64,000 nt of DNA from Pseudomonadota bacterium (GTDB lineage Bacteria > Pseudomonadota > Alphaproteobacteria > Kiloniellales > JAKSDN01), in the NCBI GenBank assembly GCA_039029395.1, contig JBCCGG010000014.1:48622-112621 (forward strand), written 5' to 3'. Of the stretch, positions 18,831 through 60,272 are shown piece after piece. The position numbers and the translations under genes were made by a program. The notes under the pieces are model-generated. The model saw only the letters and a list, made by a program, of their open reading frames with translations, did not search any database and had not been told where the DNA came from. Numbering within the stretch: position 1 is the first letter of the stretch; every line of letters begins with the position of its first letter.

Positions 18831-19622
18831 ATGACTCGCTATAACCAGCTGACTGCCTCAATCCTGGCCGCGCTGCTTCTCTGGCCGAGCTCACTACGCG
18901 CCGAGACCCTGCGGCTCGGCTACGAGGTCGCCTGGGGCAACTTCACCCTGGCCGAGGCCGAGGTCAAATACCGCGAGGACCAGACCCGCTACCACCTGGC
19001 CGGCCAGGGACGCACCGAGGGGCTTCTTGAGTGGTTCTTCACCTGGCACGGTACGGCCGAGACCGAAGGTCTCTTGGAGGCCACGGGCCGCCGGCCCCTG
19101 GCGCATCAGAGCGAAGGCACCTGGAACGACAGTACCCGCTCGACCCGGGTCGCCTGGCCGGGCAAGGGCCCGCCGACCACCGAGACCCAGCCGCCGCCCG
19201 ACCTAGAGCTGGTCACCCCCGTGCCAAAGGATGCCACGGCCGGCACCAGCGACCCCTTCACCGCGGTGCTACAGCTGCTCGACAGTCTGGCCGAGACCGG
19301 ACGCTGCGAGGCCGAAGCGAAGGTCTGGGACGGCCGGCGGCGCTATGATCTCGCGGTTGCCCACATCGGCCCCGAGACACTGGTGCCGGACCGACCCTGG
19401 GCCTACGGCGGGCCGGCCGTCGCCTGCGCGCTCAGCCACCAGCGAATCGGCGGCTTTTGGCGGGATTCCGAGGCGCCTGAAGCGACCCGCCGGGTGGTTT
19501 GGGCGGCCGAGATCGCGCCAGGCCGTTGGGCCCTGGTCCGCGCCGAGGTCGACACCAGCTACGGCACCGTGGTCGCCCGCCTAAAGCCCGCCCCAGACGT
19601 CAAGGCGGCCCTCGAAAACTAA
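18831..19622 (+). CDS. DUF3108 domain secreted protein
   Basis: Signal peptide; Y.VAWG, DPFTA, WDGRRRYDL motifs. Confidence 0.8.
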   Translation: MTRYNQLTASILAALLLWPSSLRAETLRLGYEVAWGNFTLAEAEVKYREDQTRYHLAGQGRTEGLLEWFFTWHGTAETEGLLEATGRRPLAHQSEGTWNDSTRSTRVAWPGKGPPTTETQPPPDLELVTPVPKDATAGTSDPFTAVLQLLDSLAETGRCEAEAKVWDGRRRYDLAVAHIGPETLVPDRPWAYGGPAVACALSHQRIGGFWRDSEAPEATRRVVWAAEIAPGRWALVRAEVDTSYGTVVARLKPAPDVKAALEN

Positions 19623-19633
19623 ATCAACCGAAC

Positions 19634-19649
19634 TGTGAACCATCTCACA
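19634..19649. promoter_or_regulatory. CRP-type box TGTGA-ACCATC-TCACA (perfect consensus)
   Basis: Intergenic; 21 nt before TAAAGC (-10-like) and upstream of the small ORF at 19712. Confidence 0.8.
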
Positions 19650-19711
19650 GCCCGACCCAACCGGCGGTGCTAAAGCCCCGCGCCATGAACTTTGCTTTTG
19701 AGGATCGGATC

Positions 19712-19867
19712 ATGGTGTCGGCAAAGGCGGCGCAACGTCTTGCGGTCGGACTCGGCCTGGCGTTCGGCCTTCTGTTCTGTCTCAGCCTCGAGGCCTTCGG
19801 CGCGGCGCCGAAGCCGACACATTGCTGCCCCAATTGCATGCTTTGCTCGACCGCATTCATTCCGTAA
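19712..19867 (+). CDS. Small secreted/membrane-anchored Cys-rich peptide (51 aa)
   Basis: MVSAKAAQRLAVGLGLAFGLLFCLSLEAFGAAPKPTHCCPNCMLCSTAFIP; GAGGA RBS, CRP box upstream, terminator-like hairpin downstream. Confidence 0.65.
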   Translation: MVSAKAAQRLAVGLGLAFGLLFCLSLEAFGAAPKPTHCCPNCMLCSTAFIP

Positions 19868-19877
19868 AATCGCTCGG

Positions 19878-19913
19878 CCGGCCGCGCCTTTCTGGTGCGC
19901 TTGCCGGGTTTTT
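19878..19913 (+). terminator. Possible intrinsic terminator after the Cys-rich peptide gene
   Basis: CCGGC-CGCGCC-tttct-GGTGCG-ctt-GCCGG followed by gTTTTT. Confidence 0.4.
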
Positions 19914-19941
19914 CCAGTCTCTTTAAGAGGCGGCCCGCACC

Positions 19942-20643
19942 ATGACCACGAATTTGCTCGCCAGATCGCTCGACGGCATCACGCTGCTCGACCAGATCCC
20001 GCCTGCCGATCTCAACCGCCTGTCGGAGCGCTGCAAATGGCAGCACTACGAGCAAGGCATGCAGATCCTCGGCCACATGGATCGTTCGGAGGGAATCTGC
20101 TTCGTCGTTCAGGGCAAGGCCCGGGTGGTGATCTACTCGGTCTCCGGCAAATCTGTCACCTTCCGGGACATCGCCGCCGGCGACATGTTCGGTGAGCTCT
20201 CGGCGATCGACGGCCAGGAGCGCTCGGCCAGCGTCGAAGCGCTCGAGCCCTGCACGATCGCCACCCTATCACCTGAGTTGTTCAGGGAGGTGCTGCAGAT
20301 CTATCCGGCGGTCTCGGCCGCTTTGCTGCAGCGCTTGACCGCCCAGGTGCGCCATCTAACCGAGCGGGTCTTCGAGTTCAGTACATTGGCGGTCAAGAAC
20401 CGGATTCACGCCGAGCTTTTGCGTCTGGCCCGCAAGACGCCCCACGACAACGGTCAGGCCTGGATCTCGCCAGCGCCGACTCACGCGGAGATCGCCAGCC
20501 GAATCTCAACCCACCGGGAGGCCGTGACCCGCGAGCTCAACCATCTAGCGCACTCCGGCCTGATTGAACGGAAAGATGGCAAGCTGTTGATATTAAACGT
20601 TTCTCAGCTCTCAAAGCTGGTCCAGGAAGTGACCGGCCACTGA
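19942..20643 (+). CDS. Crp/Fnr family transcriptional regulator (CRP-like, paralog 1)
   Basis: cNMP pocket FGELSAIDGQERSAS; HTH THAEIASRISTHREAVTR; no FNR Cys cluster. Confidence 0.92.
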   Translation: MTTNLLARSLDGITLLDQIPPADLNRLSERCKWQHYEQGMQILGHMDRSEGICFVVQGKARVVIYSVSGKSVTFRDIAAGDMFGELSAIDGQERSASVEALEPCTIATLSPELFREVLQIYPAVSAALLQRLTAQVRHLTERVFEFSTLAVKNRIHAELLRLARKTPHDNGQAWISPAPTHAEIASRISTHREAVTRELNHLAHSGLIERKDGKLLILNVSQLSKLVQEVTGH

Positions 20644-20685
20644 CCCTTCAGATCGTCCAAAATTTTTTCGAAAAACACGCGATCA

Positions 20686-20701
20686 TGTGAATATTCTCAC
20701 A
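20686..20701. promoter_or_regulatory. CRP-type box TGTGA-ATATTC-TCACA (perfect consensus)
   Basis: Intergenic, 42 nt after the crp stop; 21 nt before CAAATT (-10-like); upstream of the small ORF at 20789. Confidence 0.8.
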
Positions 20702-20788
20702 GCGCGATCCCCTTCCTTCTGACAAATTGGCGCCATGACAACGACACCGCCGCGCTAATGGGCGGTCACACAAGTGGAGCCAAAAGCC

Positions 20789-21031
20789 ATGTCTAAAGCA
20801 CCCGCCGCGGAACGCCCGAACAACCGCGGCATCGGCACACAGGACGTTCTCTCCGCCTGGATGATCTACCTGGTCTTCCTCGGCGCCCTGATCCTGCTGT
20901 CGACGCTCTACCTGCAGAACGACCGTGAAGAGGGCCTCTACACCGACGGCTCATCGCCGGATCTGGCCCTACAGCTGAATCAGGGCCATTGGTCGCGGCC
21001 GGTGATCGGCAACGCCACTGGCGGCGTATGA
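20789..21031 (+). CDS. Small single-pass membrane protein (80 aa)
   Basis: MSKAPAAERPNNRGIGTQDVLSAWMIYLVFLGALILLSTLYLQ...; GGAG RBS. Confidence 0.7.
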   Translation: MSKAPAAERPNNRGIGTQDVLSAWMIYLVFLGALILLSTLYLQNDREEGLYTDGSSPDLALQLNQGHWSRPVIGNATGGV

Positions 21032-21076
21032 AAACACCAAGTTCAAGCGGAATAGAGGCGCTGGGGGGCGCGGCAT

Positions 21077-22360
21077 ATGGGCGGTAAGAATACTGGGCGT
21101 GACGCACAGTTGGTCGACCGGGGCGTCCCAGCGGCGCCGATCGAGCGTTTCGCGCCGAGAGTCATGGTGCTGCCGTTCATCGACCTGAGCCTGGCGCCGG
21201 ATCCGATGCACATCGCCGACGGCTTGACGATAGACGTCACCACCGAGCTTGCCAGATTTCCCAACCTGCGCGTGCTCTCGCTCAACACGGCGCTGACCTA
21301 CAAGGGTTGGCCCGTGCCGCCCCAGCGGCTGCACGATGCCCTGGGCGCGCGCTATCTGCTGGAAGGCAGTGTCGAGCTGAGCAGCGACCGCTTGGTCGTA
21401 ACGGTTCAGCTGATCCGGGCCGCCGCAGATGAGGAGCTTTGGGCCGAGCGCTTCGAGCGGCTCGGCGCCTTCAGCCTGGACGACTATGACGACCTGATTT
21501 GCCAGATCGTCGCCGGCATGGATCGCCACATCGCTCAGGTTGAAACCGAGGGCGCGCTTCACAAGCGGCCCAGCGAGGTCAACGCTTACGAGGCCTATCA
21601 GCGCGCGATTCACAGCTTTTCGCACAACACAAAGGAGGAGCTTCAGGCCGCGCTCGACCTCTTCAGGAAGGTTACCGAGCTGGAGCCGGGCTTCGCCCGA
21701 GCCTGGGGCTATCTGGCCTACACCACGATCCGCGGTGTCACCTACGGCTGGATCGAGCCCGCCGCCATGGACCAGGCCCAAGATTGGGTGCGCCGGGCCC
21801 TGGAGCTTGATCCGACCGACTACTACAACATCTGGGACCTGGCTTTCCTGCATCAGAACTGCGGCCGCTTCGTCCAGGCCGAGCGGGCCTACCAGAGGGC
21901 ATGGCGGCTCAATCCCAACGACGCCGAGCTCTTGGCCGAGATGGCGGAGTTCTCGATCTGCAACGGCACGCCGAAATTGGCGATCGATCAAATGAGGCGG
22001 GCCATCGAGATCGCCCAGGATTACCCGCGTTGGTACGACTGGACCTTGGGCCATGCTTACTTCGCGAGCGGCGACTACGGGCGCGCGGTGGCGCGTCTGG
22101 AGCGGGACCCGGCACTGCCTTGCCATGCACGCCTGATCTTGGCCGCCGCGCTGGTCCATCTAGGCGAGCCGGAGCGGGCGCGCGCGATCGTCGGCCAGGT
22201 GCTCCAGGAGGAGCCGCGCACCTCGGTCGAAGGGCTGCGGCAAACAGATCGCCGCAGGCGGCCACAAGACCGCGCCCATTGGCTCAACGCCCTGCGCGCC
22301 GCCGGTGTGCCGGAACGCCCAGCGGGGGCAAGGCCCAACGTGGCGGCGGAAGAGGTTTGA
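21077..22360 (+). CDS. TolB-like + TPR protein without N-terminal effector domain
   Basis: VMVLPFIDLS..ADGLT.D.TTELARF, RYLLEGSV, AYEAYQR, TPR repeats; similar to the C-terminal part of the next gene. Confidence 0.85.
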   Translation: MGGKNTGRDAQLVDRGVPAAPIERFAPRVMVLPFIDLSLAPDPMHIADGLTIDVTTELARFPNLRVLSLNTALTYKGWPVPPQRLHDALGARYLLEGSVELSSDRLVVTVQLIRAAADEELWAERFERLGAFSLDDYDDLICQIVAGMDRHIAQVETEGALHKRPSEVNAYEAYQRAIHSFSHNTKEELQAALDLFRKVTELEPGFARAWGYLAYTTIRGVTYGWIEPAAMDQAQDWVRRALELDPTDYYNIWDLAFLHQNCGRFVQAERAYQRAWRLNPNDAELLAEMAEFSICNGTPKLAIDQMRRAIEIAQDYPRWYDWTLGHAYFASGDYGRAVARLERDPALPCHARLILAAALVHLGEPERARAIVGQVLQEEPRTSVEGLRQTDRRRRPQDRAHWLNALRAAGVPERPAGARPNVAAEEV

Positions 22361-22572
22361 GCCGCTGCAGAATGTTTCAACTAGAAATTATTCACCTCAG
22401 CTTGCAACTATATTCGATTGAAAACCCCAAACAATGACCGGTGATTCGCCCAATCTAGGCGCCGCAACGGGGATTGATGCTTTCGAAGCGGTGGGCCTCG
22501 GCTTAACATAAACGCCATTGATCGGCCGGGCCGGGCCGACGCCGGGCCTCGGCGCGAGAAGGAGCGGAAGCG

Positions 22573-24450
22573 TTGCGCGAGCCGGAGCGGGAAAGACGCC
22601 TCGCGGCCATTATGGTTGCCGACGCGGTCGGCTACAGCACCCTGATGAGTCGCGACGAAGAGCGCACTCACGATCAGTTCAAGTACGATCTGGAGAGTGT
22701 GATCAAGCCGACGATCCGCGACTTCCAGGGCGAGGTGGTGAAGACCACCGGCGACGGCATCCTGGCGCTCTTCCCCACCGTGATCCAGGCGGTGCGCTGC
22801 GCCGACCAGGTCCAGCGCAACCTCTGTCGGCCGCACGATGGGGAGTCGCCCGGCGACCACTTGACCTATCGGGTCGGCGTCAATCTGGGCGATATCCTGA
22901 TCGAGCGCGGCGACGTCTATGGCAACGACGTCAATGTCGCGGTGCGTCTCGAGGCGCTCGCCGAGCCCTGCGGCATCATCCTGTCGGGCGCCGCTTTTTG
23001 GAGCATCAAGGATCAAACCGAACTGCAGTTCGAGGAAATGGGTTTCCTGTCCCTCAAGAACATCCCAGAACCCATCGAGGTTTATCGACTGGTGCGCGAC
23101 CGGGACGTGGCCAGCGACGCAAACGCGCTGGCGCCGCCGCCTGACCGGGAGCCGGCCCTGCCGCCCGCCGGGCCCGAGGCCGGCGCACCGAAGTTCAAGC
23201 AGGTTTGGGCAGAAAGCGGCAAGAGTCTGCCGTCGCTCATCGTCCTGCCGTTCGACAACCTGAGCCAGGACCCAGAGCAAGAATACTTCTGCGACGGCCT
23301 GACCAACGACATCACGACCGACCTTTCGAAGTTTGCTAACCTCTTCGTGATCTCGGCCAACACGGCGCTCTCTCTCAAGGGGGCCCACCCGACGCCGGAG
23401 ACGGTGCGCCAGCGCTTCGGGGTCGACTACATGGTCGAAGGCAGCGTGCAGCGCTTCGGCAACCACATCCGCATCAACGCCCAGCTGATCGAGGCCGAAT
23501 CCGGGCACCATGTCTGGGCCGACCGACTGCAGCGCCAGTTCGACGACCTCTTCACCCTGCAGGAGCAAGTCGTGCGCGCGATCATTGCGCCGCTGGCCGC
23601 GCGCCTGGGCATCGCCGAGCGTGAGCGGGCGGCCCACAAGCAGACCGACGACGCTAGCGCTTACGAGGCCTTCCTCAAGGGCCAGTACTTCATGAACCAC
23701 TTCTACGGCATGGACGAAACGAGAAGCACGCTTGCCAGCGCCCGCGCCTGGCTCAATCGGGCGATCGAGCTCGACCCCGACTATGCCCGCGCCTGGGGTT
23801 GGCTGGCCTACACCTACATTCAGGCCTGGCGCCACGGTTGGGAGTCGGAGGCAAACGTCGAGCAAGCTTGCGAGATGGCCAGAAAGGCGGTCAGCCTGAA
23901 ACCCATGGACCACGACACCCACTGGGCGCTGGGCAGCGTCCTCTCCCACGCCGGGCACACCGAGCAGGCCTTGGCGGAATACCAGAAAGCGTTGGAGATC
24001 AACCGCAACGACGCCGATCTCTTCGCCGAGATGGGCGAGATGCTGGTCCACGCCGGCGAGCATCACCGGGCGATCAACCAGCTCAAGTTCGCCATGCAGA
24101 TCAACCCGCACTTTCCCGACTGGTACTGCTCGATTCTCGGTTGGGCCTACTACTTGCTGCGCGACTACGAGGAGGCGATCGCCGAAATCGGCAACATTGT
24201 CAGCCTGTCGGACGACGAGTATTTGATCCTGGCCGCCAGCCATGCCCGCCTGGCCGAGGCCGAGGCGGTTGAGGGCCGCGATGAAGAAGCCGCGCGCTTG
24301 CAGGCCAAAGCGCGTCGCCACATCGAGGGGTTTCTGAAGCGCCGTCCGGACTGGACAGTCGCCAAGCATGGGCGCATCACGATCCTGAAGCGGGACGGCG
24401 ATTTGAGCCACTACCTAGAGGGGCTTCGGCTGGCTGGGCTGCCGGCGTGA
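22573..24450 (+). CDS. Class III adenylate cyclase with TolB-like and TPR domains
   Basis: ADAVGYS and KTTGDG metal Asp residues, RVGVNLGD, GDVYGNDVNVAVRLE; the Lys/Asp pair suggests ATP specificity. Confidence 0.9.
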   Translation: MREPERERRLAAIMVADAVGYSTLMSRDEERTHDQFKYDLESVIKPTIRDFQGEVVKTTGDGILALFPTVIQAVRCADQVQRNLCRPHDGESPGDHLTYRVGVNLGDILIERGDVYGNDVNVAVRLEALAEPCGIILSGAAFWSIKDQTELQFEEMGFLSLKNIPEPIEVYRLVRDRDVASDANALAPPPDREPALPPAGPEAGAPKFKQVWAESGKSLPSLIVLPFDNLSQDPEQEYFCDGLTNDITTDLSKFANLFVISANTALSLKGAHPTPETVRQRFGVDYMVEGSVQRFGNHIRINAQLIEAESGHHVWADRLQRQFDDLFTLQEQVVRAIIAPLAARLGIAERERAAHKQTDDASAYEAFLKGQYFMNHFYGMDETRSTLASARAWLNRAIELDPDYARAWGWLAYTYIQAWRHGWESEANVEQACEMARKAVSLKPMDHDTHWALGSVLSHAGHTEQALAEYQKALEINRNDADLFAEMGEMLVHAGEHHRAINQLKFAMQINPHFPDWYCSILGWAYYLLRDYEEAIAEIGNIVSLSDDEYLILAASHARLAEAEAVEGRDEEAARLQAKARRHIEGFLKRRPDWTVAKHGRITILKRDGDLSHYLEGLRLAGLPA

Positions 24451-25357
24451 GACCTCGGGCGACGCGCGCCTCTTCGAGCAGCCACTCCCGGAAGGCTGCG
24501 ACCTTGGGCCGGTCGGCGCCGTCTTTCGCGCTCAGCAGATAGAAGGAGAACGTGAGCGGCGTGCTGAGGCGCGGGTCGAAGGGGCGCACCAACCGGCCGG
24601 CGGCGAGATCGTCGGCCACCAGGATGTCGCCGGTCAGCGCCACGCCCTGGCCGTCGAGCGCGGCCTGGACCGCCATGTTCTCCATGGTGAAGTGCGGCCC
24701 GCGGGTCGGGTCGATGTGGTGCAAACCGGCCGCCAGCAGCCACATGCGCCAGCTCGCCTCGGCGTCCTTCCAGTCGATGTGCAGCAGAGTGTGGTGTTTC
24801 AGATCCTCGGGCCGGCGCAATGGATAGGCGCCTTTCATCAGGACGGGGCTGCAGACCGGTGTGTTGACCTGGCCGAACAACCAGTCGACCCGCACCCCGT
24901 GGTAGCCGCCAGGGCCGTAGCGCAGCGCCACGTCGGCATCGCCGCGCGCCAAGTCGACCCGACGGTCGGTGCCGTCGATGCGAATCTCGATGTCCGGATG
25001 CCGCGCACGGAAACGCTCGAGCCGGGGCACCAGCCACAAGGCGCCGAACGCGGGGCTGACGCTGATGGTCAGCACCCCGCTCTCGCGGTTGGCGCGCATC
25101 TGCTCGACTCCCTGGGCCAGCGTGTCGAAGCCCAGGCTAATCGTCGGCAAGGCCGCTTGGCCGGCATCGGTTAAGCGCAGCGCCCGGGTCAGGCGGCGGA
25201 ACAGGGGCACCTGAAGCAACTCCTCGAGCGCCTTGACCTGGTGACCGACCGCGGCCGGCGTGACGTTCAGCTCGGCCGCCGCCTTGGTGAAGCTGAGATG
25301 CCGGCCGGCCGATTCGAAGGCCTTGAGGGCGTTTAAGGGCGGAAGCGGGCGAGACAA
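24377..25357 (-). CDS. LysR family regulator (GcvA-like)
   Basis: LPPLNALKAFESAGRHLSFTKAAAELNVTPAAV HTH; 3' end overlaps the cyclase gene. Confidence 0.92.
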   Translation of the reverse strand: MSRPLPPLNALKAFESAGRHLSFTKAAAELNVTPAAVGHQVKALEELLQVPLFRRLTRALRLTDAGQAALPTISLGFDTLAQGVEQMRANRESGVLTISVSPAFGALWLVPRLERFRARHPDIEIRIDGTDRRVDLARGDADVALRYGPGGYHGVRVDWLFGQVNTPVCSPVLMKGAYPLRRPEDLKHHTLLHIDWKDAEASWRMWLLAAGLHHIDPTRGPHFTMENMAVQAALDGQGVALTGDILVADDLAAGRLVRPFDPRLSTPLTFSFYLLSAKDGADRPKVAAFREWLLEEARVARGLTPAAQPAEAPLGSGSNRRPASGS

Positions 25358-59312: not shown

Positions 59313-59447
59313 CTAGTAGTCCAGAAGGAAGGGGGTCGCCAGCATCAAGAGGAAGGGGCCGGCCATGATCACGGCGGCCAGGACGACAACCACGTCCAAC
59401 GAGACCATTGCCATTTTTCGACTGAGTGTCGTCAATAGACTCGGCAT
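59313..59447 (-). CDS. Small single-pass membrane protein (44 aa)
   Basis: Manual translation MPSLLTTLSRKMAMVSLDVVVVLAAVIMAGPFLLMLATPFLLDY; GGAGG RBS 8 nt upstream; CRP box upstream. Confidence 0.7.
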   Translation of the reverse strand: MPSLLTTLSRKMAMVSLDVVVVLAAVIMAGPFLLMLATPFLLDY

Positions 59448-59519: not shown

Positions 59520-59535
59520 AGTGACGGCCATCACA
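59520..59535. promoter_or_regulatory. CRP-type box (minus strand TGTGA-TGGCCG-TCACT, 9/10)
   Basis: Intergenic, 35 nt after the stop of crp paralog 2 and upstream of the 44-aa ORF. Confidence 0.72.
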
Positions 59536-59570: not shown

Positions 59571-60272
59571 TCAGGTCGCCTTCGAGCCCGAGCTGGCCGC
59601 CAGGAAGCCGGTCAGCTTATCCCGGTCCATGAGATATAGATTGCGCCCCTTGCGACGCAGCAGGCCGTCGGCATAGAGCTGGCTGAGCGCGCGGGCCACG
59701 GTCTCCCGGGTCGTGCTAACCCGGCTGGCGATCTCGCGCAGAGGCGGCAGAGGCCGAACCACCCAAAGCCCGTCGACCGCGGCGTCGGGCTGGGCCATGC
59801 GCAAAAGCTCGGCATAGACCCGCTGGGTCGCCGCCAGGGTGCTGAGCTCCATGATGCGCACGTCGCCGGCGCGCACCATTTGGGCGAGACGAAACAGCAC
59901 TTTGAAGGTGACCTCGACCCGCTCCTCGAGCAGGCGATGGAACTCGGCCGCCTGGAGCAGGGCAACGTAGGCCGGCTCGGCCGCCACGGCGCTTGCCGAG
60001 CGAGGCTTGCCGTCGATCGCCGAGAGCTCGCCAAAGCAGTCGCCGGCCAAGATCCGGGCGAAAGCGACCTCGCGGCCCGTCAGGCCGGTGTTCACGATAT
60101 GAACCGAGCCCTCGAGGATGAAAAAGACCTCGCGCGCCTCGGAGCCGTACTCCAGGATGCGCTCATTCGCCTTGTAGCGCCGCCAACGGCAGCGCGCCTC
60201 CAGGCGGTCCAAGGTTTCCCGGTCGAGATCGGCAAACAGCTCGATCTGCGCCAGCGACTTGGTCTCCGTCAC
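59571..60272 (-). CDS. Crp/Fnr family transcriptional regulator (CRP-like, paralog 2)
   Basis: FGELSAIDGKPRSAS pocket; HTH LREIASRVSTTRETVAR; 233 aa, like paralog 1. Confidence 0.92.
   Translation of the reverse strand: MTETKSLAQIELFADLDRETLDRLEARCRWRRYKANERILEYGSEAREVFFILEGSVHIVNTGLTGREVAFARILAGDCFGELSAIDGKPRSASAVAAEPAYVALLQAAEFHRLLEERVEVTFKVLFRLAQMVRAGDVRIMELSTLAATQRVYAELLRMAQPDAAVDGLWVVRPLPPLREIASRVSTTRETVARALSQLYADGLLRRKGRNLYLMDRDKLTGFLAASSGSKAT

Follow-up and report, generated by a model that had tools for sequence, protein, structure and literature searches.

Genes and sites around crpA

We analyzed a 64,000-nucleotide (nt) stretch of DNA (the window) from the draft genome of an uncultured marine alphaproteobacterium of the order Kiloniellales (6.16 Mb, 64.6% G+C); in a contig scan the closest relatives bearing a name were uncultured Geminicoccaceae and other Alphaproteobacteria. 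Within the window lies a region centered on crpA, which encodes a transcription factor of the CRP type. Two perfect copies of the palindrome TGTGA-N6-TCACA, referred to here as box 1 and box 2, flank this gene, and each is followed by a small open reading frame (ORF): sORF1 lies between box 1 and crpA, while sORF2 lies behind box 2 and is followed in turn by genes for a TolB-like/TPR protein and a class III nucleotidyl cyclase (Table 1). A second locus in the same window, crpB, repeats the layout of crp gene, box and tiny membrane ORF. An earlier note on this DNA, made from the sequence alone, had interpreted the crpA region as a self-contained circuit leading from the cyclase through the Crp protein to the small proteins. 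Our analysis points instead to a predicted CRP regulon whose kind is familiar and to which a conserved small-protein element is added.

Table 1. Features of the crpA and crpB loci and further perfect boxes of the genome. Positions without a prefix are those of the window; G000 denotes the same genome, C a contig and L a locus; ranges given for further boxes are those of the whole locus.
Feature	Position	Strand	Description
box 1	19634-19649		perfect TGTGA-N6-TCACA palindrome, 0 mismatches; 12 nt 3′ of the stop of a DUF3108 gene
-10-like element GCTAAAGC	19669-19676	+	starts 19 nt after box 1
sORF1	19712-19867	+	51 amino acids (aa); signal-peptide-like N-terminus, four Cys near the C-terminus
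hairpin with five-U run	19872-19913	+	begins 5 nt after the sORF1 stop, ends 28 nt before the crpA ATG
crpA	19942-20643	+	CRP-type cyclic-nucleotide-binding (cNMP-binding) transcription factor, 233 aa
box 2	20686-20701		perfect TGTGA-N6-TCACA palindrome; 42 nt 3′ of the crpA stop
weak -10-like element GACAAATT	20721-20728	+	19 nt after box 2
sORF2	20789-21031	+	80 aa, single transmembrane helix; starts 87 nt after box 2
TolB-like + TPR protein gene	21077-22360	+	stand-alone, 427 aa; 45 nt after sORF2
class III cyclase gene	22573-24450	+	catalytic residues 1-180 fused to TolB-like + TPR; TTG start
sORF-B	59313-59447	-	44 aa, single transmembrane helix; starts 72 nt after box B
box B	59520-59535	-	single mismatch, the last base being T; follows the crpB stop by 35 nt
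crpB	59571-60272	-	second CRP-type paralog; 39% identical to CrpA (residues 8-225), with the helix R-E-T-V-A-R
perfect box (C9:78105)	G000:C9:77308-78120 (L041)		52-aa membrane ORF, then Redoxin-family peroxiredoxin
perfect box			target: secreted animal-haem-peroxidase family protein
perfect box	G000:C19:40976-41906 (L043, L145)		217 nt upstream of the third CRP-type regulator, contig 19
perfect box	C15		target: membrane protein of ~335 aa
perfect box	C24		target: 154-aa protein, no family matched
perfect box	G000:C31:75758-75948 (L046)		36-aa ORF behind the box

The palindrome is enriched in the genome and beside crp genes

Boxes 1 and 2 are the only perfect copies of the palindrome in the window, where the earlier note had placed them, and 100 dinucleotide-preserving shuffles of the window contained a mean of 0.02 perfect boxes and never two or more (0/100). 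The earlier note had also proposed a genome-wide box scan and a comparison of synteny among relatives as checks. Over the whole 6.16 Mb, eight perfect boxes were found; eight control patterns, matched in composition or differing in spacer length, occur 0, 1, 3, 0, 0, 0, 2 and 0 times. The enrichment is tied to the 6-nt spacer, with spacers of 5, 7, 8 and 4 nt giving 0, 0, 2 and 0 sites, and none of the eight perfect boxes falls inside a rough ORF mask spanning 67% of the genome. A relaxed core, GTGAY-N4-RTCAC, occurs at 40 sites versus 4–16 for four controls. Across the order (41 genomes) we counted 168 boxes versus 12 for the reversed control, a tally that, like those of CrpA orthologs and of sORF2 homologs given below, takes in one unpublished genome (G021).

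The crp loci of 40 relatives within the order were assigned to CrpA or CrpB, whichever paralog they matched better. At 38 crp loci, 21 sites with at most one mismatch lie within 300 nt after the crp stop codon (11,255 nt; 20/38 loci), and only five lie in the other 123,058 nt, while four control patterns gave no site downstream and 0–1 elsewhere. Both in this genome and beside the crp genes of its relatives, the boxes are far above chance frequency.

A tiny membrane ORF follows the box at both crp paralogs

In the 12 CrpA-type loci (13 with G021, whose locus has no box), a box with at most one mismatch is found within 450 nt of the crp stop in seven, and in six a small membrane ORF with an A-W motif starts 70–88 nt behind the box. 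A box also precedes crp by 245–308 nt in 5/12 when two mismatches are allowed. Among CrpB-type loci a box is present in 10/20, and in 9/20 it is accompanied by a 38–44-aa ORF that starts 70–75 nt behind it. The CrpB-type boxes have a G+C-rich spacer, the left half TGTGAY in 10/10 and a final T in 9/10, with one locus (L061) carrying two perfect boxes that end in A. The evolutionarily conserved core is a crp gene, a box and a tiny membrane protein in that order, an arrangement shared by the crpA and crpB loci.

On several counts sORF2 appears to be a real gene. Its ATG is preceded by GGAG, its codon score of 0.56 is close to the true-gene mean of 0.63, and both other frames score strongly negative. 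Homologs stand 70–88 nt behind a box in five relatives (G003, G006, G013, G022 and G029), and two further homologs from the database (66–69% identity) keep the central helix and its flanks. This family of six positional members and two database homologs shares the reading frame, the position and the A-W motif before one transmembrane helix. The proposal that box 2 precedes an 80-aa single-helix ORF stands, and sORF2 is supported as a conserved, gene-like predicted target of that box.

sORF-B, whose ATG is preceded by GGAGGA, belongs to a family whose members have a constant length of 38 aa and a box 70–79 nt upstream; D, P, L and P-F positions are invariant, the pattern including a conserved D and two P-F pairs. 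A profile search of 1.84 billion representatives returned 73 members at E ≤0.001, mostly of 37–44 aa and matched end to end, while Pfam gave no match at a meaningful score. Of 400 genomes sampled evenly across the class, only four others contain the family. One of these, G389, has a perfect box 79 nt upstream of its family member and no crp gene within 1.5 kb. The sORF2 and sORF-B families were also compared with each other as possible kin, and their relation is not detectable (hhalign probability 1.4%).

Promoter geometry behind the boxes

In a class II CRP promoter, the geometry described by Busby and Ebright, the site is centered ∼41.5 bp before the transcription start and ∼21 nt separate the box from the −10 hexamer. 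The hexamers that begin exactly 21 nt after the boxes are TAAAGC (19671-19676, box 1) and CAAATT (20723-20728, box 2), so the distance on which the earlier note had based its class II assignment is present at both. Under a stricter test that asks for a TA-type hexamer with at least 4/6 matches to TATAAT at 19–22 nt behind the box, 5/8 boxes of the genome pass as against 1.7% of random non-ORF positions (binomial P ∼8e-8), a comparison for which the criterion was set post hoc and the orientation was chosen towards the gene.

Beyond the hexamers, GCTAGA is common to three unlinked boxes at the same offset as GCTAAAGC and GACAAATT, and C-A-A/C-A-T elements similar to GACAAATT recur at this offset in CrpB-type modules. 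We take GCTAAAGC, GACAAATT and GCTAGA to fit the alphaproteobacterial housekeeping −10 consensus better than that of Escherichia coli. The distances from box to −10-like element support a predicted class II arrangement across the regulon, with a predicted start at ∼19682 for the transcript from box 1. A 7-codon ORF (20735-20758) upstream of sORF2 begins exactly at the class II start predicted behind box 2.

CrpA and its paralogs

CrpA contains a cNMP_binding domain (PF00027, E 9e-18) and an HTH_Crp_2 domain (PF13545, E 5e-13), and among proteins of solved structure E. coli CAP matches it best (E 1.6e-17). Since it scores only 82.5 bits against the NCBIfam CRP equivalog NF008732, below the cut-off of 266, CrpA is not an ortholog of enterobacterial CRP. 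Aligned to CAP, CrpA retains the G-E (G71-E72 in CAP) and R-S (R82-S83) pairs, and the residues G84, E85 and R94 together with the recognition helix R192-E-A-V-T-R-E198 are invariant in 12 orthologs of 49–55% identity. The cAMP-pocket residues and the R-E-x3-R helix named in the earlier note are thus kept in the alignment. On its domains, its ribose and phosphate contacts and its recognition helix, we assign CrpA to the CRP branch of the CRP/FNR family, and the helix, the enrichment of the box and its placement together predict that CrpA reads a CAP-type palindrome.

CrpA is one of several such proteins in the genome. Among 22 HTH_Crp_2 matches, seven are full-length Crp/Fnr regulators, of which four have an FNR-type helix (E-x2-S-R) and three a CRP-type helix (R-E-x3-R/K). 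The latter are CrpA, CrpB and a third regulator on contig 19 (G000:C19:41208-41906; helix R-E-S-V-N-K).

sORF1 and the hairpin before crpA

The 51-aa Cys-rich ORF that the earlier note had proposed as an output of box 1 is present, with GAGGA 7–8 nt before its ATG. Its coding signal is weak. No homolog was found among 5.8 billion proteins other than its own record, none at E ≤0.01 in the 40 relatives (matches at E 0.02–0.085 in 2/40 were treated as noise), and no match in Pfam or NCBIfam; a protein atlas gave no usable match for either sORF1 or sORF2, all scores being below 0.9. Because the nearest crpA relative in metagenome contigs is 50% identical and there is no near relative, the absence of sORF1 homologs is weak evidence. 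The codon score of sORF1, 0.17, stands at the 1.4th percentile of true-gene windows and above 99.9% of open off-frame windows, and its frame 0 scores above both other frames. In the four loci L022 and L031-L033, the interval before crp contains no conserved ORF comparable to sORF1. We consider translation of sORF1 uncertain on this evidence. The three loci L031-L033, from three genomes of one genus, share a conserved non-coding block of ∼80 nt between the upstream box and crp.

The hairpin between sORF1 and crpA folds at −25.2 kcal/mol (z −3.05) with 0/200 shuffles as stable, and was also flagged in a promoter/terminator scan; it is predicted to be a terminator or attenuator. Since it lies before crpA, the box-1 transcript probably ends upstream of that gene, and crpA may be served by read-through or by a promoter inside the end of sORF1, where TAAAAT (19865-19870) is a candidate element, although the promoter scan did not call it. 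An Rfam scan of 19300-24800 at E ≤1 returned two chance-level rows only.

The TolB-like/TPR protein and the cyclase

The protein encoded at 21077-22360 described in the earlier note as an effector-less TolB-like/TPR protein, matches only TPR families in Pfam, and it aligns to residues 220-539 of the cyclase with 35.6% identity over 320 aa; from this alignment we take it to be a paralog of the non-catalytic two thirds of the cyclase. Its database homologs are mostly cyclase fusions that carry the JGI name 'TolB-like protein/class 3 adenylate cyclase', and the label 'TolB-like' rests on such source names. No solved structure matched its N-terminal 208 aa below E 1. Among these homologs the TolB-like + TPR module is fused to a cyclase, a winged-helix domain (PF00486), BTAD (PF03704) or TIR (PF13676), or stands alone, and it appears to be a portable sensor or scaffold module. 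One of the two database homologs of sORF2 and a 64%-identical homolog of the TPR protein that lacks a cyclase are each found on a contig of length 46,792, where the two genes are probably neighbors as well.

The cyclase carries a Guanylate_cyc domain (PF00211) at residues 11-172 (E 2.6e-7) followed by TPR, and its best solved relative is 3mr7 (E 6.6e-39). In the alignment to 3mr7, residues D17, K57, D61, D114, N121 and R125 match what we take to be the class III motif, K57/D114 presumably being the Lys/Asp pair that specifies ATP. The earlier description of a class III cyclase with intact catalytic and ATP-specifying residues holds on this reading, and nucleotidyl cyclase activity is predicted.

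The 212-nt AT-rich gap before the cyclase gene contains no box at up to two mismatches, and a cyclase follows crp in one relative only (G005), so a closed loop via the neighboring cyclase is unsupported. The genome has 43 Guanylate_cyc matches in its 6.16 Mb, and with three CRP-type regulators and six further perfect boxes, the region is not self-contained. No significant hairpin was found between sORF2 and the TolB-like/TPR gene, nor before the cyclase gene.

Other boxes in the genome and in relatives

Taking the nearest gene that each faces, the eight perfect boxes of the genome point to sORF1, sORF2 and six other targets (Table 1). The 52-aa ORF on contig 9 has a gene-like codon score (0.55) and no homolog in the 40 relatives. 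The 36-aa ORF on contig 31 lies in a low-G+C stretch and has a signal-peptide-like start and a good −10 element at its box, with a codon score of −0.26 that is not gene-like. No terminator folding better than shuffles was found 3′ of sORF-B or of these two ORFs.

Two relatives contain clusters of boxes. In one, three perfect CAP boxes are spaced exactly 30 nt apart (G015:C1:1563547-1563622). In the other, four perfect boxes within 9 kb (G014:C8:9000-20000; L062) surround two Crp-like genes and genes for a 1153-aa SAM/cyclase protein and a 1-Cys peroxiredoxin. The two Crp-like proteins of this cluster score 73–84 bits against CrpA, the nearer one being 28% identical, and although one of the boxes is identical to the published Rhodospirillum centenum box, this does not make it a cgrA locus.

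Proposed mechanism

From these sequence features, their enrichment and their conservation we infer binding, activation, transcript ends, translation and ligand as follows. The most likely reading, to which as a whole we give a probability of roughly 0.6, is that a nucleotide-loaded CRP dimer activates class II promoters at both boxes. CrpA would be a cyclic-nucleotide receptor that reads the CAP-type palindrome and, once loaded, would activate promoters where the palindrome stands in place of the −35 element. From box 1, promoter 1 would give a short transcript of ∼230 nt that contains sORF1 and mostly ends at the hairpin, and read-through past the hairpin would result in positive autoregulation of crpA. 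Promoter 2, at box 2, would drive sORF2 as a small single-pass membrane protein, and the TolB-like/TPR gene behind it, with 45 nt and no hairpin between, would probably be co-transcribed. The neighboring cyclase gene, one of ∼40 in the genome, would probably be transcribed on its own, for which reason the neighborhood would be a signaling island, not a closed loop. The six further perfect boxes would mark a small regulon specific to this genome.

Several observations weigh against this mechanism. The first group concerns the protein: the C-helix residues that contact the base in CAP, T127/S128, are L/T in CrpA (L in 11/12 orthologs, T or S in 12/12), which the earlier note had left out of its account of the pocket, so the ribose and phosphate contacts are retained and the base contacts are not. 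The residue after the phosphate-binding Arg also varies among the 12 orthologs (S in eight, C in two, A and T in one each), and the recognition residues are common to the three paralogs, any of which may read a given box. The second group concerns the sites. Each of TAAAGC and CAAATT matches TATAAT at only 3/6 positions and both fail the stricter −10 test, meaning that the hexamers of the proposed class II promoters are weak even where their distance is right. Sites with one mismatch are not enriched genome-wide (38 versus 10–39 in controls), and boxes also occur in genomes without a CrpA ortholog at E 1e-20 (47 in 15 genomes, compared with 121 in the 26 genomes with one). Conservation, finally, is incomplete: 5/12 CrpA-type loci have no downstream box, the box of the peroxiredoxin gene is present in its own genome only (1/29 loci, absent in 28 others), that of the third paralog is kept in 0/11 relatives, and 18 distant CrpA-like loci from metagenomes, several of them with little or no flank, yielded one downstream and one upstream box. 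Among sequencing runs, a single DNA run, possibly the source of the window, was found to contain the stretch, and no RNA run was listed.

Alternative explanations

The shared recognition helix leads to one alternative, in which the boxes are read mainly by CrpB, by the third regulator (G000:C19:41208-41906) or by several of these proteins, and CrpA is a target and not the master. This would account for the R-E-x3-R/K helix in 3/7 full Crp/Fnr regulators, for the third paralog having a perfect box of its own 217 nt upstream, and for the boxes of genomes that have no CrpA ortholog. We nevertheless consider it unlikely, as boxes adjoin crpA orthologs in 7/12 loci, and the distinguishable variant used at CrpB-type loci, with its G+C-rich spacer and final T, points to site preferences that differ in part. 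A reading of the palindromes as chance occurrences, or as structural elements that might for example act as weak terminators for the preceding genes, is highly improbable. They do lie shortly 3′ of stop codons (that of the DUF3108 gene at 12 nt, that of crpA at 42 nt), and box 1 is listed within a terminator-like stem on the minus strand; however, a 5-bp stem without a U-run would not terminate, the enrichment is restricted to the 6-nt spacer (0, 0, 2 and 0 sites at 5, 7, 8 and 4 nt), −10-like elements follow the boxes at a fixed offset, and across families their position is kept at both paralogous loci.

A more serious contender concerns box 1 alone, namely that sORF1 is not a protein gene, its frame being incidental, and that the transcript serves as a small RNA, or as a leader that attenuates crpA through its hairpin. 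The missing homologs among 5.8 billion proteins and 40 relatives, the codon score below that of 98.6% of true-gene windows, the strong terminator that begins 5 nt behind sORF1 and stops 28 nt short of crpA, and the lack of a conserved ORF in the matching interval of L022 and L031-L033 would all be expected in that case. On the other side, frame 0 beats both other frames and 99.9% of open off-frame windows, GAGGA stands at the right distance, the N-terminus has a signal-peptide-like order, the transcript region matches no Rfam family, and with the nearest crpA relative only 50% identical the missing homologs weigh little. On balance we hold the small RNA or leader to be a substantial possibility, somewhat less likely than not.

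As to the ligand, cAMP seems more likely than cGMP, and a CrpA that responds to cGMP or to both nucleotides, as does R. centenum CgrA or Sinorhizobium meliloti Clr, is on the doubtful side. The L/T pair of CrpA in place of T/S speaks for such a response, and the T127L variant of the E. coli protein responds to cGMP, whereas the cyclase next to CrpA carries K57/D114, the pair that we take to specify ATP. Passages of PMC10187061 describe cAMP-binding CRPs with T-T, T-N or L-N at the C-helix positions, among them Synechocystis SYCRP1, which uses cAMP with L/N, as well as two alphaproteobacterial CRPs that are activated by cGMP. The R-T signature of CgrA is absent from CrpA, which reads R-S. Since known CRPs vary at the C-helix positions, the ligand of CrpA is not readable from its sequence.

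Comparison with known systems

E. coli CAP has the same palindrome, recognition residues and box-to-(−10) distance as the system proposed here, whose hexamers at boxes 1 and 2 are weak, but CrpA matches it only at a low level and has different C-helix contacts, and the regulon is small and without sign of catabolic genes. SYCRP1 binds cAMP and a CAP-like site despite L/N at the T/S positions, where CrpA has L/T; it is cyanobacterial and serves motility and carbon uptake, and the passages on it report no link to a small membrane ORF (PMC10187061). The S. meliloti Clr system, with cyaD1 and smc02177/smc02178, resembles the present one in that many cyclases feed one CRP-type regulator (PMC5498481, PMC10187061, in the parts consulted) and in that the targets beside clr and cyaD1 are non-cytoplasmic proteins of unknown function within a largely envelope-related regulon (PMC5498481). 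The distinction that the earlier note had drawn from Clr is upheld: Clr has the helix R-P-K-V-N-R and the site HGTYHC-N4-GRWACA (PMC10187061), in contrast to R-E-A-V-T-R and CAP-consensus sites for CrpA.

The closest precedent is CgrA of R. centenum, also an alphaproteobacterial CRP homolog. The passages of PMC4681086 on this system describe a perfect TGTGA-N6-TCACA box at the promoter of the cluster RC1_3785-gcyB-gcyC-cgrA, the linkage of crp to cyclase genes, feed-forward or autoregulation with CgrA as an activator of the cluster that encodes it, and strongest induction for a set of targets that includes the hypothetical first gene and the small divergent ORF RC1_3784, which is induced 60-fold. 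With this precedent the earlier note's remark that it knew of no description of such a circuit is not borne out. The two systems are distinct in gene order, with crp last in the cyclase operon of R. centenum (PMC4681086) and here between two boxes with the cyclase separate, and CgrA has R-T, a longer nucleotide-binding domain and a cGMP preference where CrpA has R-S (PMC4681086, PMC10187061, in the passages concerned). By gene order and the R-S motif, and comparing with CgrA by description only, the crpA region is not a CgrA-type cassette. The R. centenum passages describe no conserved box and small membrane ORF directly behind crp (PMC4681086), and within the literature searched we found no description of a module of crp, box and small membrane ORF.

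Significance

CRP regulons belong to textbook knowledge, the linkage of crp and cyclase genes with a CAP box is already known in Alphaproteobacteria, and the cassette itself is unsurprising. What appears to be new is the conserved module of crp gene, box and tiny membrane ORF at two paralogous loci, where no box targets other than very small membrane proteins directly behind crp are retained across families, and one of these, sORF-B, belongs to a widespread 38-aa family that has no name in any library. More speculatively, and in our view rather improbably as a whole, tiny single-pass membrane proteins (38–80 aa) might be hard-wired primary outputs of CRP-type receptors in this order, with two unrelated families at equivalent positions immediately after two paralogous crp genes and downstream, in each case, of a class II CAP box. 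Their role may be one of feedback on the signaling itself, for instance by tuning membrane-associated cyclases or transporters or by tethering the regulator at the membrane. Independently of this, sORF1 and its terminator might represent a secreted Cys-peptide under CRP control or a crp attenuator coupled to translation. Annotation tends to overlook small membrane proteins, and few have a known regulator; here both a predicted regulator and a predicted signal are supplied. sORF2 and sORF-B are therefore good candidates for small-protein roles in second-messenger signaling.

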